Assembly (NCBI RefSeq): GCF_003019035.1
Contig: NZ_CP027447.1
Source: Escherichia coli
GTDB lineage: Bacteria > Pseudomonadota > Gammaproteobacteria > Enterobacterales > Enterobacteriaceae
Reading direction: 5' to 3' (one strand)
Length of the DNA: 64,000 bases
Below are positions 28,758-48,122 of the stretch, piece by piece. Numbering within the stretch: the stretch's first letter is position 1; every line of letters begins with the position of its first letter. The translations under genes were made by a program, and so were the position numbers. The notes under the pieces are model-generated. The model worked only from the letters and a program-made list of their open reading frames with translations. It did no database searches and had not been told where the DNA came from.

Positions 28758-30161
28758 TCAGGAAGGAAATGCGAGTGATTTCACCGTCACCGGCACAACC
28801 GATCCGCCAAAAAGAGGCGTACCAATGTCGATATAGTCCCCCGCGCGGACAATCACTTCGTCAATGACTGCCAACGGGAGTTGTTGTAGCTGTGGGCGCA
28901 ACAACATGCCCAGAGCTTTACCAAAGTCCTGCCCGGCCACCACCAGCAGGGGATGCGGATTCGGAAAACGCGCGACGAAATCGACCAACGCGTTGATGAC
29001 CGTCAGTACCGCGGCGTAACGCACAGGCAGCGAGGCGGGAAGCGCCAGCACGTACGCGTCAGTTTTAGGATCAAGATCCAGCTGAATCAGCGCCTGTTGC
29101 CAGGCACTCACCAGATCCTTTTCATCAATTGGGATCGCCACCGGCAAGTTGCGCAGCGGCAGTTGTACGCCCTCCAGCCAGATTGTGCTGCCAGAGAGCG
29201 AAAGGGTATGTGCACCCGCGCCAATCACCGTGGCGCGCACGGTTTGCGCCGGAAACTGCACGTTCATCTCACGCAGGCGCGGATGGTCATGCAGCGCCGT
29301 TGCCAGAAGCGGGCCAATATCGGCAAAACAGAACGGGTCGGCGGGCTGGTGGCGATAACATTCGCCCACGCCGCCAGAAAGCGTAATGATTTCGGGCGTA
29401 ACACCTGCGGGCAGCAAACCGGTTTGCATTAATGCCTGCGCGAGCGGCGAAAGCGTTCCGTCAATCACTTCGACAATCAGCTCTGCCATCCGCCGGGTAA
29501 CCTGCACCAGCTGCGCGCCGGTCAGCGAACGGGCGTCGGTGCCTGCGCCGAAGCACTCATCCACAATCATCTGCCCCGGTTTATGAGCGTAAACCACGCG
29601 CCCCTGGCTGTCGGTTTCCAGCAGGCGACCGCCGACATTGAGGCAGGCGGTGCCGCTGATTTTTCCGGCATCGAACAGGGCGTAGTTCGCGGTGCCACCG
29701 CCGATATCGATATTCAGGACCCGACACAGCCGTTGTTCAGAAAGGGTTTGCGCCCCGGCACCGTGACCGGCGATCACGGATTCGAGATGCGGTCCAGCGC
29801 TGGCGACGACAAAATCGCCCAGCGACTGGGAGAGCGTCATCACCGCCGGGCGAGCGTTGCGGGTTTTCGCGCTTTCACCGGTGATGATGATGGCACCAGA
29901 ATCAACGCTTTCCGGCGCAATGCCCGCAGCCTGATATTGCTCGAGGATTAAGGTTTTCAGTTCCGCTTCTTTTAAACCACCCTGTTTATCGACAGGGGTA
30001 AAGAACACCGGGCTTTGCCAGCTAATTTCGCGTTTGATGAATTCGTAGCGCGGCACCTGCGACACCGCCGCACGGTTAACCAGCTCCAGGTGGGAGAAAA
30101 TCACCTGGGTGGTGGTGGTGCCGATATCGATACCGACGCTCAGTAGCTGGCGAGTGTTCAC
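28758..30161 (-). CDS. eutA: Ethanolamine ammonia-lyase reactivase EutA
   Basis: 467-aa ORF MNTRQLLSVGIDIGTTTTQVIFSHL...; starts 11 bp after eutB with no intervening prophage. Confidence 0.9.
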   Translation of the reverse strand: MNTRQLLSVGIDIGTTTTQVIFSHLELVNRAAVSQVPRYEFIKREISWQSPVFFTPVDKQGGLKEAELKTLILEQYQAAGIAPESVDSGAIIITGESAKTRNARPAVMTLSQSLGDFVVASAGPHLESVIAGHGAGAQTLSEQRLCRVLNIDIGGGTANYALFDAGKISGTACLNVGGRLLETDSQGRVVYAHKPGQMIVDECFGAGTDARSLTGAQLVQVTRRMAELIVEVIDGTLSPLAQALMQTGLLPAGVTPEIITLSGGVGECYRHQPADPFCFADIGPLLATALHDHPRLREMNVQFPAQTVRATVIGAGAHTLSLSGSTIWLEGVQLPLRNLPVAIPIDEKDLVSAWQQALIQLDLDPKTDAYVLALPASLPVRYAAVLTVINALVDFVARFPNPHPLLVVAGQDFGKALGMLLRPQLQQLPLAVIDEVIVRAGDYIDIGTPLFGGSVVPVTVKSLAFPS

Positions 30162-31384
30162 GATTGCGCCTCCGCTTCGGTTTTAGCCGCGCTCGCGTCT
30201 TCTTTAGGTACCAGCATCATCGCCACGCCAATCGCCGTGACGCCGCCGATCAGCTTGCCGACAATCATCGGGAAGATCATGGCGTTCATGTTGGCAGCCG
30301 CGAAGCCTAAATGGTCGCCCAGGGCGAAAGCAGCGGAAACGGCGAAGGCACAGTTGATGACTTTGCCGCGGGTATCCATCTGCTTCATCATGCCAAACAT
30401 CGGGATGTTGTTGGCAAGCGTTGCCACCATGCCGGCTGCCGCTATATTGTTCATATTCAGCACCTTACCGACACTCATCAGCGGTTTTTCAAACCAGCGA
30501 GTCAGCAGCAGCACCATCGGATACGCCCCCAGCAGCACGCAGGAGATAGAACCGATAACTTCAATGGCGCGCATCACTTCACCGGGTTTGTCGCCTGGAG
30601 CCATGAAGATCGGATCCAGACCGGGGATCAGTTCCCAACCGAGCAGGAATTTCACTACCGCAGCGGCAAGACCGAGGGTGATCAATGCAACGAGGAATTT
30701 GGCGAAGATCTGGAAGCCGTTGATCATTTTTTCCGGGATGAATTTCAGCCCCAGCGCCACCAGCACCGCAACGATAAGTACCGGGATCATGTTCATCAGG
30801 ATCAGGGCAAAGGTGAATTCAACAGGCTGGCCGTTGATCTGCACACCGGAGTACATCGCTACCAGACCACCAGCGATACAGCCAATCGGAATGGTCACTA
30901 TGCCCGCCAGCACGCCGAGCGCCAGATAACGACGGTCAGAAGGTTCGATAATGCCGAGCGCCACCGGAATGGAAAACACAATCGTTGGCCCCATCATCGA
31001 CCCGAGAATTAACCCAGAGTATAGCCACGCTGCTACGTCACCGCCCGCCAGCTCTTTGGCGAGGAAGAAGCCGCCCATATCGCACGCCAGCAGTGTTCCA
31101 GCGAACATTGACGGGTTTGCGCCGAGCATTTCGTAAACCGGGATAATCACCGGCCCGAGTACGTGGGCCAGTACCGGTGCCAGCGCGGTCATACCGACCA
31201 TAGCCAGGCCCAGAGCGCCCATTGCCATAAAGCCTTCTTCGAACTGACCGCCGGATCCTTCGATACTTTTACCGAACTTACCGAGGAAACGAGCAGAACC
31301 GCCGAACTGCGACAGGATCCTGTCTACGGCAGCTATCAGCATAAAGAACATCATGATGTACATGATGATTTCGTTAATTCCCAT
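30158..31384 (-). CDS. eutH: Ethanolamine permease EutH
   Basis: 408-aa polytopic membrane ORF MGINEIIMYIMMFFMLIAAVDRILSQFGG... Confidence 0.9.
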   Translation of the reverse strand: MGINEIIMYIMMFFMLIAAVDRILSQFGGSARFLGKFGKSIEGSGGQFEEGFMAMGALGLAMVGMTALAPVLAHVLGPVIIPVYEMLGANPSMFAGTLLACDMGGFFLAKELAGGDVAAWLYSGLILGSMMGPTIVFSIPVALGIIEPSDRRYLALGVLAGIVTIPIGCIAGGLVAMYSGVQINGQPVEFTFALILMNMIPVLIVAVLVALGLKFIPEKMINGFQIFAKFLVALITLGLAAAVVKFLLGWELIPGLDPIFMAPGDKPGEVMRAIEVIGSISCVLLGAYPMVLLLTRWFEKPLMSVGKVLNMNNIAAAGMVATLANNIPMFGMMKQMDTRGKVINCAFAVSAAFALGDHLGFAAANMNAMIFPMIVGKLIGGVTAIGVAMMLVPKEDASAAKTEAEAQS

Positions 31385-31437
31385 CGCCTTTACTCCCTGT
31401 TAGTTGTTATTTATTGCCAATGCTGAAAGTGGGTTTT

Positions 31438-31556
31438 TCCCTCACTCTGGAAGCCGAGGGGCCGGGGTGAGGGTAATTGTTTGCACCGGCGCGACTCTGT
31501 TCCCCTCACCCTAACCCTCTCCCCAAAGGGGCGAGGGGACTGTCCGTACACTTTTA
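31438..31556. repeat. Composite GC-rich palindromic intergenic repeat (possibly Box C-type) in the eutH-eutG spacer
   Basis: Inverted repeat ccctcac...gtgaggg (31438-31472) followed by tgttcccctcaccctaaccctctccccaaaggggcgaggggactgtccgtacactttt; a second copy of the latter lies at 46998-47055. Confidence 0.7.
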
Positions 31557-32741
31557 TTGCGCCGCAGCATACAGACCAATAATCTGCTCCAGGCTGGCGG
31601 TACGCGGGTTGCTGCGCAGACAAATATCTTCCAGCGCGGCCTGCGCCCATGCGCCGTAATGTCCGGTGGTTGCGCCCACGTCTGCCAGCCGCTTGTTGAT
31701 CCCGACCTCCGCAATCAACTCACTTACCGCGTTAATAGCGTCACGATCGTCGGATTTTTTAGTTCGCAGTGCCCGGCCAATCTGACTAAACCGATCACGA
31801 CAAACCATCCGGTTAAATTCCATCACCGTTGGCAGCAACATAGCGTTCGCCAGACCGTGCGGAATATGCAGCGCCGCCCCTGGCTGATGCGCCATCGCGT
31901 GGCACAACCCAAGCCCCGCACTGGAAAACGCCATTCCCGCCATACATGAAGCCAGCAACATGCTCTCGCGGGCGGCAAGGTCGTGACCGTAGCCCACCGC
32001 TTTCGGCAGCGATTTGCCAATCATCGCAATGGCACCAATCGCCAGACTGTCGGTAAACGGTGTGGCGTTCAGCGCGCTGTACGCTTCAATGGCATGGGTT
32101 AACGCATCAATGCCAGTCATCGCCGTGACATGCGACGGCACACCTTCGGTCAATGCGGCGTCGAGAATCGCCACATCCGGCATCAGCGAGGCATGGGCTA
32201 ACACCTGCTTACGCCCGCTCACCGCATCGATAATCACCGTTACGTTGGTGGTTTCAGAGCCGGTTCCGGCGGTAGTCGGAATGGCAATCAACGGCAGGCG
32301 CGATTGCAGAACGCTGGTTTCTGACATCTCTGCCAGCGTGCTATCCGGGTTCGTCACCAGCAACGCCACGGCTTTTGCTGCATCCAGCACCGAGCCGCCG
32401 CCAAACGCAATCACCCCGTCACAGCCTGATTCACGCAACTGCGCCACGGCTGCACACACGTCGGTGATGCATGGTTCGCCCACCGGACATGGCCAGAGCG
32501 TCATGGCGATACCTTTAACGGCCAGGCTACGTGTCAGCCCGGCGGTCATCCCTGCCTGATGCAAAAAGCTGTCTGCCATCACGAACAGATGTTTCAGCCC
32601 ACGCGTTTGCGCTTGCTGCCCACAACTGCTCACCGCGCCCGGACCGCAAAGCGTCACCGGTGGAACGCTAAATGTTTTTACCCGTTGCAGATTCAGGGTA
32701 TCGAACGCCTGAAAGAGCGCGGTCTGCAATTCATTTTGCAT
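31554..32741 (-). CDS. eutG: Iron-containing alcohol dehydrogenase EutG
   Basis: 395-aa ORF MQNELQTALFQAFDTLNLQRVKTF...; Fe-ADH motifs GGGSVLDAAKAVA. Confidence 0.9.
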   Translation of the reverse strand: MQNELQTALFQAFDTLNLQRVKTFSVPPVTLCGPGAVSSCGQQAQTRGLKHLFVMADSFLHQAGMTAGLTRSLAVKGIAMTLWPCPVGEPCITDVCAAVAQLRESGCDGVIAFGGGSVLDAAKAVALLVTNPDSTLAEMSETSVLQSRLPLIAIPTTAGTGSETTNVTVIIDAVSGRKQVLAHASLMPDVAILDAALTEGVPSHVTAMTGIDALTHAIEAYSALNATPFTDSLAIGAIAMIGKSLPKAVGYGHDLAARESMLLASCMAGMAFSSAGLGLCHAMAHQPGAALHIPHGLANAMLLPTVMEFNRMVCRDRFSQIGRALRTKKSDDRDAINAVSELIAEVGINKRLADVGATTGHYGAWAQAALEDICLRSNPRTASLEQIIGLYAAAQ

Positions 32742-44002: not shown

Positions 44003-44953
44003 ATGAACGAGTTAGACGGCATCAAACAGTTCACCACTGTCGTGGCAGACAGCGGCGATATTGAGTCCATTCGCCATTATCATCCCCAGGATGCCACCAC
44101 CAATCCTTCGCTGTTACTCAAGGCTGCCGGATTATCACAATATGAGCATTTAATAGACGATGCTATCGCCTGGGGTAAAAAAAATGGCAAGACCCAGGAA
44201 CAACAGGTGGTCGCTGCATGTGACAAACTGGCGGTCAATTTCGGTACTGAAATTCTCAAAATCGTACCCGGTCGCGTGTCAACAGAAGTTGATGCACGCC
44301 TCTCTTTTGATAAAGAAAAGAGTATTGAGAAGGCGCGCCATCTGGTGGACTTGTATCAGCAACAAGGCGTTGAGAAATCACGCATTTTGATCAAGCTGGC
44401 TTCAACCTGGGAAGGAATTCGCGCGGCAGAAGAGCTGGAAAAAGAAGGTATTAACTGCAACCTGACGCTGCTGTTTTCTTTTGCTCAGGCGCGGGCCTGT
44501 GCAGAAGCAGGCGTTTTTCTGATTTCGCCGTTTGTCGGGCGTATTTATGACTGGTATCAGGCGCGTAAGCCGATGGACCCGTATGTGGTGGAAGAAGATC
44601 CGGGCGTTAAGTCAGTGCGCAATATCTACGACTACTATAAGCAACACCACTACGAAACCATTGTAATGGGCGCGAGCTTCCGTCGCACCGAACAAATCCT
44701 CGCCTTAACCGGCTGCGACCGACTGACTATCGCACCGAATTTGCTGAAGGAGCTACAGGAAAAAGTTTCGCCAGTGGTACGTAAATTAATCCCATCTTCT
44801 CAGACGTTCCCACGCCCAGCTCCCATGAGCGAAGCGGAGTTCCGTTGGGAGCACAATCAGGATGCGATGGCGGTAGAAAAACTGTCTGAAGGCATTCGTC
44901 TATTCGCCGTTGATCAACGCAAACTGGAAGATCTTCTTGCCGCCAAACTATAA
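44003..44953 (+). CDS. talA: Transaldolase A
   Basis: 316-aa [46 protein letters not shown]... Confidence 0.95.
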
Positions 44954-44972
44954 ACCAGCCACGGAGTGTTAT

Positions 44973-46976
44973 ATGTCCCGAAAAGACCTTGCCAATGCGA
45001 TTCGCGCACTCAGTATGGATGCGGTGCAAAAAGCCAATTCTGGTCATCCCGGCGCGCCGATGGGCATGGCCGATATTGCCGAAGTGCTGTGGAACGATTT
45101 TCTTAAACATAACCCTACCGACCCAACCTGGTATGATCGCGACCGCTTTATTCTTTCCAACGGTCACGCGTCGATGCTGCTCTACAGTTTGCTGCATCTG
45201 ACCGGTTACGACCTGCCGCTGGAAGAACTGAAGAACTTCCGTCAGTTGCATTCGAAAACCCCAGGCCACCCGGAAATCGGCTATACGCCTGGTGTTGAAA
45301 CCACCACCGGTCCACTTGGACAAGGTTTGGCGAACGCCGTCGGGCTGGCGATAGCAGAGCGTACGCTGGCGGCGCAGTTTAACCAGCCAGATCATGAAAT
45401 TGTCGATCACTTCACCTATGTGTTTATGGGCGACGGCTGCCTGATGGAAGGTATTTCCCACGAAGTCTGTTCGCTGGCGGGCACGCTGGGACTGGGCAAG
45501 CTGATTGGTTTTTACGATCACAACGGTATTTCCATCGACGGTGAAACCGAAGGCTGGTTTACCGACGATACAGCAAAACGTTTTGAAGCCTATCACTGGC
45601 ATGTGATCCACGAGATCGACGGTCACGATCCGCAGGCGGTGAAGGAAGCGATCCTTGAAGCGCAAAGCGTGAAAGATAAGCCGTCGCTGATTATCTGCCG
45701 TACGGTGATTGGCTTTGGTTCGCCGAATAAAGCAGGTAAGGAAGAGGCGCACGGCGCACCACTGGGGGAAGAAGAAGTGGCGCTGGCACGGCAAAAACTG
45801 GGCTGGCACCATCCGCCATTTGAGATCCCTAAAGAGATTTATCACGCCTGGGATGCCCGCGAAAAAGGCGAAAAAGCGCAGCAGAGCTGGAATGAGAAGT
45901 TTGCCGCCTATAAAAAGGCTCATCCGCAACTGGCAGAAGAGTTTACCCGTCGGATGAGCGGTGGTTTACCGAAGGACTGGGAGAAAACGACTCAGAAATA
46001 TATCAATGAGTTGCAGGCGAATCCGGCGAAAATCGCTACCCGTAAGGCTTCGCAAAATACGCTTAACGCTTACGGGCCTATGCTGCCTGAGTTGCTCGGC
46101 GGTTCGGCGGATCTGGCTCCCAGCAACCTGACCATCTGGAAAGGTTCTGTTTCGCTGAAGGAAGATCCGGCGGGCAACTACATTCACTACGGGGTGCGTG
46201 AATTTGGCATGACCGCTATCGCCAACGGCATTGCGCACCACGGCGGCTTTGTGCCGTATACCGCGACGTTCCTGATGTTTGTTGAATACGCCCGTAACGC
46301 CGCGCGGATGGCGGCACTGATGAAAGCGCGGCAGATTATGGTTTATACCCACGACTCAATTGGCCTGGGCGAAGATGGTCCTACGCACCAGGCTGTTGAG
46401 CAACTGGCCAGTCTGCGCTTAACGCCAAATTTCAGCACCTGGCGACCGTGCGATCAGGTGGAAGCAGCGGTGGGCTGGAAGCTGGCGGTTGAGCGCCACA
46501 ACGGACCGACGGCACTGATCCTCTCCAGGCAGAATCTGGCCCAGGTGGAACGTACGCCGGATCAGGTTAAAGAGATTGCTCGTGGCGGTTATGTACTGAA
46601 AGACAGCGGCGGTAAGCCAGATATTATTTTGATTGCCACCGGTTCAGAGATGGAAATCACCCTGCAAGCGGCAGAGAAATTAGCGGGAGAAGGTCGCAAT
46701 GTACGCGTAGTTTCCCTGCCCTCGACCGATATTTTCGACGCCCAGGATGAGGAATATCGGGAGTCGGTGTTGCCTTCAAATGTTTCTGCCCGCGTGGCAG
46801 TAGAAGCGGGTATTGCCGATTACTGGTACAAATATGTTGGTCTGAAAGGGGCAATTGTCGGGATGACAGGTTATGGGGAATCTGCTCCGGCGGATAAGCT
46901 GTTCCCGTTCTTTGGCTTTACCGCCGAGAATATTGTGGCAAAAGCGCATAAGGTACTGGGAGTGAAAGGTGCCTGA
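44973..46976 (+). CDS. tktB: Transketolase 2
   Basis: ORF track 44910..46976 trimmed to [40 protein letters not shown]; 667 aa. Confidence 0.95.
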
Positions 46977-46997: not shown

Positions 46998-47057
46998 TGT
47001 TCCCCTCACCCTAACCCTCTCCCCAGAGGGGCGAGGGGACGGTCCGTGCGCTTTTTA
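46998..47057. repeat. GC-rich palindromic intergenic repeat (second copy) downstream of tktB
   Basis: tgttcccctcaccctaaccctctccccagaggggcgaggggacggtccgtgcgcttttt; 54/58 identical to 31498-31555, same orientation. Confidence 0.7.
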
Positions 47058-47078: not shown

Positions 47079-48122
47079 TTAACGGGTGATCCACAACGTG
47101 GGCCAGGCGTCTGGCCCATGCCAGTTATCGCAGGTGGGTTCTGCGGCGTAACGCACCAGGCGAAAACGCTGACCGTCAAAGCGCCAACGCGCCTGAATGC
47201 CACAATCGCTTAATCCGCGCCCTTTCGCTAAGGTCACCAGTTCACGCGATTTCTCATCAAATGTTGCGTTCATCAGTTCCAGTTCATTCGTCTCCTGACC
47301 GTTGTTGAACGGCAAACGCAACCGAACCGGGCGCGAGGCTAGCGGCTTTTTACGCGACACAATCCATGCCAAATCAATGGTGTTATAGGCCCCTGCCTCA
47401 CAGCTAATCATCATCAGTGCTTTATCATCGGTCAGCGCAGTGACATTCACCTCACGACGTAACGGATCAAGCGAGCAGCGCAGACCATTCATCCGCCAGT
47501 TTCCATAATCCAGCAAATCGTTGCGTTCTTCGAGTGAGAGTGGCGTCGGCGTTGGGTTAACCACCGCGACCTCTTTCAGCGCAGGCGCAGGCGGTACGCT
47601 GAGCGGCGGTTCGTCCCCTTTCTTTATCCACGCGGTTTCACTGCCAACGCGCTTTTGCTGAGCATCAATAAACAACAACGCCGCTTTTAAGCCATTCAGA
47701 GAAATGGTCTGATTGCCATCGCGTAAGGTGATTGCCTTCCCTTCCTGAATCAGCTGCAAAAACGCGGTGATGGTTGCCGTATCATCGGTTACTAGTAACC
47801 ATGGTGAAATCCGCCACTTGTCACCACTTAACGCCAACGGCTCACCATCTAACAGCAGCCGTGGCGCTATCTCCCCTTCAGACGCATCCGGCGACTTCAA
47901 CCCGCCGCGCTCAATACGTAAAACGGCATCGGTATGCGCCCCGGCGCTGCGGCTCAGGGTCATCACCAGTCCATTATGATCGCCCGTATTGCGCGCTACA
48001 CAGAAATTTTGGTTATTACAGGTAACCTGCCAGTCGGAAAACGCCCGTTGCGCTGGTGCCGCCCACACCAAAGACGTCGGCAACAAAGCGAAAAAAAAGA
48101 GAAGGAAAATGCGATAGCGCAT
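47079..48122 (-). CDS. ypfG: DUF1176-family periplasmic protein YpfG
   Basis: 347-aa ORF with signal peptide MRYRIFLLFFFALLPTSLVWAAPAQ. Confidence 0.8.
   Translation of the reverse strand: MRYRIFLLFFFALLPTSLVWAAPAQRAFSDWQVTCNNQNFCVARNTGDHNGLVMTLSRSAGAHTDAVLRIERGGLKSPDASEGEIAPRLLLDGEPLALSGDKWRISPWLLVTDDTATITAFLQLIQEGKAITLRDGNQTISLNGLKAALLFIDAQQKRVGSETAWIKKGDEPPLSVPPAPALKEVAVVNPTPTPLSLEERNDLLDYGNWRMNGLRCSLDPLRREVNVTALTDDKALMMISCEAGAYNTIDLAWIVSRKKPLASRPVRLRLPFNNGQETNELELMNATFDEKSRELVTLAKGRGLSDCGIQARWRFDGQRFRLVRYAAEPTCDNWHGPDAWPTLWITR

Follow-up and report, generated by a model that had tools for sequence, protein, structure and literature searches.

The element that occupies the eutG-eutH spacer of the Escherichia coli DNA analyzed here is of an already known kind, its family having been described since 1992 in a literature that includes Bergler 1992, Bachellier 1999, and Hoyne and Maher 2000/2002. 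Holder et al. (2015; PMC4666352) unite BoxC, PIT elements, and the TMECO motif in one family and give it the consensus CCCTCNCCC-N3-6-GGGNGAGGG-N3-GGGNGAGGG. The elements are always intergenic and show no link to gene function or class, and in the earlier experiments summarized in the same paper, they acted neither as promoters nor as terminators and left RNA polymerase unaffected (PMC4666352). K-12 has five inverted pairs of a type A and a type B arm (PMC4666352), with a B-to-A spacing of 26 to 27 nt in pairs 7+8, 10+11, and 12+13 (PMC4666352, Table 1). The eut element shares with this family its sequence, its intergenic and multicopy nature, the inverted A+B pair, a linker of ∼27 nt, and a strain-variable locus. 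Nothing essential sets it apart, and its type B arm is degenerate, as the describers of the family report at other loci.

REP (PU) and BIME-2 elements resemble the eut element in their use of the exact same eut site, in their GC-rich inverted palindromes with a linker, and in the mRNA stem-loops expected just after the stop codon. Unlike them, the BoxC spacer has neither the REP consensus nor the tandem 100-bp amplification, and BoxC stems are mirror repeats of the triplex type, in contrast to REP stems. Unlike REP/BIME, BoxC is also not known to be linked to the RAYT transposase, to gyrase, or to IHF. The MITE-like repeats of enterobacteria (ERIC/IRU and RSA) are likewise small, noncoding, palindromic, dispersed intergenic elements that are sometimes transcribed within operons, but their sequences are different, terminal inverted repeats accompanied by target duplications specific to the element were not evident for BoxC, and the eut element has no match to Rfam or to another family of this sort. 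Intrinsic terminators and intercistronic stabilizer hairpins share with it a GC-rich hairpin in an untranslated operon gap, but there is no U-tract at eut and essential operon genes lie downstream.

Identity and layout of the spacer element

In the window (the whole 64,000-nucleotide stretch of E. coli DNA that was analyzed), eutG (31554-32741, minus strand, 395 amino acids) and eutH (30158-31384, minus strand, 408 amino acids) are separated by exactly 169 bp (31385-31553), as the initial annotation had it, and the gene limits in the open reading frame list agree with the RefSeq annotation of an identical locus. Neighboring eut genes overlap, by 4 nt for eutA/eutH and 11 nt for eutJ/eutG, which also bears out the earlier description. 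The order on the transcript is eutG, spacer, eutH, with eutG upstream and eutH downstream, and this corrects the order given before. Both inverted repeats that had been quoted were found, ccctcac/gtgaggg at 31439-31445 and 31467-31473 and ccctctcccc/ggggcgagggg at 31515-31524 and 31528-31538. A longer stretch of complementarity runs across the arms (31465-31476 with 31500-31511), and the composite palindromic repeat makes up ∼135 bp of the 169-bp spacer. Because its 24-nt core, CCCTCTCCCCAAAGGGGCGAGGGG, was observed twice in the window (at 31515 and 47015) against 0 expected from 100 dinucleotide shuffles of the window, the block is no chance feature. Two open reading frames, at 31411-31650 (minus strand) and 31477-31659 (plus strand), were set aside as chance products of an out-of-frame overlap with eutG or of a run through the repeat.

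The tentative assignment to Box C in the initial annotation was correct. The consensus regular expression is matched by the minus strand of 31503-31537, and the 36-mer at 31502-31537 (minus strand), CCCTCGCCCCTTTGGGGAGAGGGTTAGGGTGAGGGG, is identical to K-12 TMECO nos. 7, 11, and 15, designated “type A mm” (PMC4666352, Table 1). Copy counting showed that the spacer is repetitive rather than unique, contrary to the refuting condition named in the initial annotation, with 37,528 places in 5,424 E. coli genomes matching parts of it and a median of 7 places per genome by megablast and 15 by blastn. Over ∼56 bp, the spacer aligns with K-12 BoxC copies that include the fabI (envM) copy, fabI-ycjD (TMECO 9), where BoxC was reportedly first described. 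A 44-nt run (31498-31541) is identical in six copies apart from one loop base (A/G) and one 1-nt insertion. The Box C assignment holds because the whole ∼120-bp unit, linker included, is a dispersed repeat, as seen in an alignment of the eut copy with six loci (hrpB-mrcB among them); in the window, this unit spans about 31433-31555. The same B-linker-A unit was aligned at bacA-cca, ygfF-gcvP, fepB-entC, alx-sstT, and iscR-trmJ, and all seven BoxC loci inspected were intergenic. Based on sequence, the spacer element is an ordinary copy of the known BoxC family in its paired form. The eut locus is not named as a BoxC site in the literature examined, and eut gene names are absent from the supplements of PMC4666352.

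From the eutH side, the spacer begins with a putatively ancestral part of 33 nt (31385-31417, minus strand) that carries the eutH Shine-Dalgarno sequence GGGAG (complement of 31393-31397). Its letters do not differ between E. coli alleles with BoxC and those with a BIME, and it aligns with the entire 27-nt eutG-eutH spacer of several Citrobacter genomes. Positions 31410-31417 hold the left copy of a direct repeat that flanks the insert, TTTATTGC (GCAATAAA in mRNA sense), with the 7-nt core CAATAAA; the right copy (31553-31560) holds the eutG stop codon (31554-31556). In the seven-locus alignment, the left edge of the insert (31418-31438) is without clear family homology over 31418-31432 and continues with GGTTTT (31433-31438), a lead-in conserved among BoxC pairs. 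It is followed by a degenerate BoxC/TMECO type B arm with a CCG second loop, CCCTCACTCTGGAAGCCGAGGGGCCGGGGTGAGGG (31439-31473, plus strand), which aligns to K-12 type B arms, and by a 28-nt linker between the arms, TAATTGTTTGCACCGGCGCGACTCTGTT (31474-31501), which is conserved among BoxC pairs elsewhere. The BoxC/PIT/TMECO type A “mm” arm on the minus strand (31502-31537) comes next, and the BoxC tail GACTGTCCGTACACT (31538-31552), which is partly conserved across the six aligned copies, completes the classical ∼56-bp BoxC in the alignments. The layout is type B(+), 28-nt linker, type A(−), with the arms inverted. The type B arm (31439-31473, plus strand) fails the strict TMECO regular expression because its first and middle blocks are mutated. 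Remodeling of the eutG C terminus by the insert was ruled out: species whose spacer is empty also end EutG with the conserved LYAAAQ*, and the insert therefore left this terminus unchanged.

Alleles and history of the junction

The full 169-bp BoxC spacer is a minority allele, present in 303 of 5,426 complete E. coli genomes. A junction probe detected a BIME (REP pair) in 5,103 of the 5,426 (∼94%), amplified in 100-bp steps from one to about six units, with spacers of 116, 216 (K-12), 316, 416, and 516 bp. A decayed version of the BIME gives O157:H7 a 99-bp spacer. Over E. coli and related Escherichia, BIME spacers span 116 to 578 bp. Using REP (PU) consensus stems such as GCCGGATGCGGCG...CTTATCCGGCCTAC as the test of membership, we found no match in the BoxC-allele spacer, which has 0 REP core motifs, versus 2 to 22 in BIME alleles. 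The BoxC pair is placed as a BIME is, right after the stop codon and within the operon, with inverted arms and a linker, and this likeness is one of layout only. The same CAATAAA direct repeat bounds the BoxC and BIME alleles at the same positions; in mRNA sense, the junction reads ...GCGCAATAAA-insert-CAATAAATAAC..., with the eutG stop codon inside the first copy.

We then compared spacers across species, using an EutH scan with one genome per species from which eutG-eutH spacers were extracted. The spacer measures 27 nt in six Citrobacter genomes, 32 nt in Pluralibacter and Yokenella, and 34 to 48 nt in more distant genera, and the Citrobacter 27-mer aligns to the E. coli spacer minus the insert and one CAATAAA copy. 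Salmonella, other Citrobacter, Pseudocitrobacter, and Klebsiella have REP types of their own directly after the stop codon. BIMEs occupy the junction in E. whittamii and three other Escherichia lineages (all of those sampled), and BoxC was found at eutG-eutH in none of the sampled species representatives. Parsimony over the sampled species indicates that the short spacer is ancestral, that the BIME is old in Escherichia, and that BoxC is a later replacement within E. coli. The BoxC allele is placed as derived because the other Escherichia species sampled all have BIMEs, and it most likely replaced a BIME and not an empty site, since the CAATAAA duplication is common to both alleles. Judged from these spacers, the junction has been colonized repeatedly and independently by genus-specific stem-loop repeats and left empty in some lineages.

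We conclude that the eut element is very probably a passively carried repeat, presumably neutral or selfish, whose influence on the mRNA would at most be that of any stem-loop, and that it most likely serves no purpose of its own in eut expression. The spacer consists of two parts, a ∼33-nt ancestral eutH ribosome-binding region and a ∼135-bp BoxC insert, the latter a single BoxC copy in which an exact type A arm lies inverted to a degenerate type B arm across the 28-nt linker. In this lineage, the copy most likely replaced a REP/BIME array at exactly the same point, between the eutG stop codon and the eutH ribosome-binding site, and the site itself tolerates stem-loop repeats.

An alternative that we regard as unlikely is that the element acts at the DNA level, with a G-rich strand capable of forming a triplex (H-DNA) or G-quadruplex that would stall replication or provoke recombination and make the locus a local hotspot of variation. 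Local instability of this kind was proposed by Holder et al. 2015 (PMC4666352). In vitro, oligonucleotides with the identical type A “mm” motif formed an intrastrand triplex, and TMECO loci were more variable than control loci, but in vivo footprinting did not support a stable triplex (PMC4666352). The eutG-eutH locus is highly polymorphic, and two BoxC-allele strains show a mismatch peak of 23 per 200 bp at the 3′ end of eutG, adjoining the element. However, polymorphism at the junction is mostly a matter of BIME copy number, for which BoxC is not needed, and the association is correlative, as repeats may merely accumulate where change is tolerated.

Predicted folding and possible effects on eut mRNA

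On the polycistronic mRNA, the passively carried repeat would fold as a long imperfect hairpin. The predicted mRNA-sense fold has an energy of −57 kcal/mol for the spacer and −50 kcal/mol for the core, the latter forming one long imperfect hairpin. Compared with dinucleotide shuffles, neither is better than the shuffled sequences (z scores of −1.26 and −1.33, respectively), and folding energy cannot show selection in this case because shuffles of G runs and C runs fold almost as well. RNAalifold returned a consistent 31-pair consensus hairpin for seven copies, and compensatory changes were found at 0 of these 31 pairs. By these comparisons, the palindrome is inherited and is not visibly selected as RNA.

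Scans detected no terminator-like site (stem plus U-tract) on either strand of 31385-31553 and no promoter-like site in the spacer. Rfam searches in a permissive E-value mode gave best scores of 17 to 19 bits against thresholds of 40 to 94, with E-values of 0.9 to 8, and these subthreshold matches were rejected as microRNA and frameshift-element noise. The initial annotation had suggested that the structure could affect read-through or mRNA stability, and this part found no support, there being no terminator, promoter, Rfam match, covariation, or excess fold stability. At most, the hairpin would be a barrier to 3′-to-5′ exonucleases, like any intercistronic stem-loop. By analogy with REP hairpins (Newbury et al. 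1987), any stem-loop at this site could shield the upstream mRNA from 3′ exonucleases.

We also observed that GGGGAGAGGGTTAGGGTGAGGGG, at 31502-31524 (minus strand, mRNA sense), fits the quadruplex pattern G3+ N3 G3 N3 G3 N3 G3+. Given this four-tract pattern, an mRNA-sense quadruplex is possible; a quadruplex was excluded for the DNA oligonucleotide (Holder et al., PMC4666352).

The hairpin may partly occlude the eutH Shine-Dalgarno sequence. Taken further, this would make the BoxC allele a lineage-specific translational attenuator, in which CUUCC on the mRNA (31449-31453, minus strand), part of the C-rich complement of the degenerate type B arm, sequesters the Shine-Dalgarno sequence and EutH falls below its level in BIME strains. 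Folding predicts that GGGAG and CUUCC are partners, with an ensemble pair probability of 0.93, and that opening the stretch from the Shine-Dalgarno sequence to the AUG costs ∼10 kcal/mol in the BoxC allele; for three BIME alleles and for the empty spacer of Citrobacter, the corresponding values are 6.1 to 7.0 kcal/mol. The Shine-Dalgarno sequence is predicted to be about half open in two BIME alleles (0.49 to 0.58), O157 (0.44), and the empty spacer (0.42). Nevertheless, we consider attenuation improbable. The case is purely in silico and concerns a sequence rich in G and C runs with many competing folds, and the pairing prediction is fragile because the same CUUCC sits inside the long main hairpin when the element is folded alone. 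In addition, the degenerate O157 BIME allele already needs 8.6 kcal/mol to open the Shine-Dalgarno-to-AUG stretch, covariation across the seven copies is lacking, and published surveys give the family no role in expression (PMC4666352). Occlusion of the Shine-Dalgarno sequence, if true, would be a real allele-specific effect, and some influence of the element on eutG/eutH stoichiometry is conceivable.

Very unlikely, too, is an origin of the BoxC pair as a miniature transposable element, with an insertion of its own into an empty eutG-eutH site and duplication of a 7- to 8-bp target (CAATAAA). Such an origin would agree with the inverted-repeat architecture, with the direct repeat TTTATTGC on both sides of the insert, and with an inferred empty site that matches the 27-nt Citrobacter spacer. 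However, the same direct repeat flanks the BIME allele, which is older and common to all Escherichia species sampled, and the CAATAAA duplication therefore predates BoxC. No shared flanking duplication was evident at other BoxC loci in an unsystematic comparison by alignment only, and a mere 10 of the 37,528 matching places were plasmid borne; the motif is also reported not to be associated with transposons, phages, or plasmids (PMC4666352). It is extremely unlikely that the element divides the eut operon at the eutG-eutH gap as an internal terminator or a site of RNA processing, for although a stable GC-rich hairpin (predicted, −50 kcal/mol) lies in the 169-nt untranslated gap, no U-tract follows any stem, the scan of the spacer was negative, the downstream eutH, eutA, eutB, eutC, and further genes need read-through, and PIT/BoxC showed no terminator activity or RNA polymerase effect in earlier work (PMC4666352).

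Read as a passively carried repeat, the eut element is one more copy of a family without an experimentally assigned function and matters little in itself. The junction is a clean natural experiment: it may be empty, hold from one to about six BIME units, or hold a BoxC pair, and it is therefore convenient for measuring the effects of repeats on mRNA stability and downstream translation. The number of BIME units at eutG-eutH could also serve as a typing marker.

Alternation of BoxC and REP/BIME at other loci

A second BoxC lies in the window at 47002-47037 (minus strand), between tktB (44910-46976) and ypfG (47079-48122). It is of type A “mm,” with a motif identical to K-12 TMECO 9, 16, 19, and 22. 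This BoxC allele is also in the minority (835 of 5,426 E. coli genomes). In the common allele, one REP stands exactly there, and a partial REP on the left, GCCGGATGCTG, is kept in both. At bacA-cca, a BoxC pair is present in 1,260 genomes, and the alternative between the same flanks is one REP or three. At iscR-trmJ, a BoxC pair (1,433 genomes, O157 included) alternates with a BIME array with a 91-bp unit; the left flank is common to the alleles up to the same base, and the BIME spans are 473, 564, and 655. The alternative allele was a REP or BIME at 4 of the 4 polymorphic BoxC loci examined (eutG-eutH, tktB-ypfG, bacA-cca, and iscR-trmJ), with ygfF-gcvP left out of the comparison because its other allele is without ygfF. 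REP motifs beside BoxC were found at none of seven other loci. A 1997 abstract by Bachellier et al. (Genetics 145:551) reportedly mentions boxC insertions at BIME loci.

The repeated alternation of BoxC and BIME at shared boundaries hints at how BoxC spreads. One reading, which we consider doubtful, is that a BoxC pair specifically takes the place of a REP/BIME, or gives way to one, with nucleotide boundaries in common, so that the landing of BoxC pairs would be nonrandom. If this were true, BoxC would spread by a REP-templated or REP-targeted mechanism, for example template switching at palindromes or a REP-associated transposase, and the alternation would offer the first handle on the movement of a 30-year-old orphan repeat family.

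The eut linker (31474-31501) agrees with the local BIME inter-unit linker at 14 of 15 positions (TTGCACCGGCGCGACT versus TTGCACC-GCGCCACT), a match reached in 7 of 5,000 shuffles. Three of the four departures of the eut linker from the BoxC family consensus go toward the BIME sequence, which could be chance. The linker of the eut copy resembles a hybrid between a BoxC linker and that of the resident BIME. Homology of BoxC and BIME linkers was rejected for the family, as the consensus linker gave no significant match (481 of 5,000 shuffles), and the resemblance belongs to the eut copy only.

Divergence beside the element was uneven. Relative to strain 7/2, in which the spacer is 100% identical, the window has 23 mismatches in 31585-31784, at the 3′ end of eutG, and 0 to 14 mismatches per 200 bp elsewhere in the region. 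The last 119 residues of EutG are 94% identical to those of strain 7/2 and 98% identical to those of an ST131 strain with the BIME allele. The 3′ end of eutG beside the repeat looks like a recombination mosaic.
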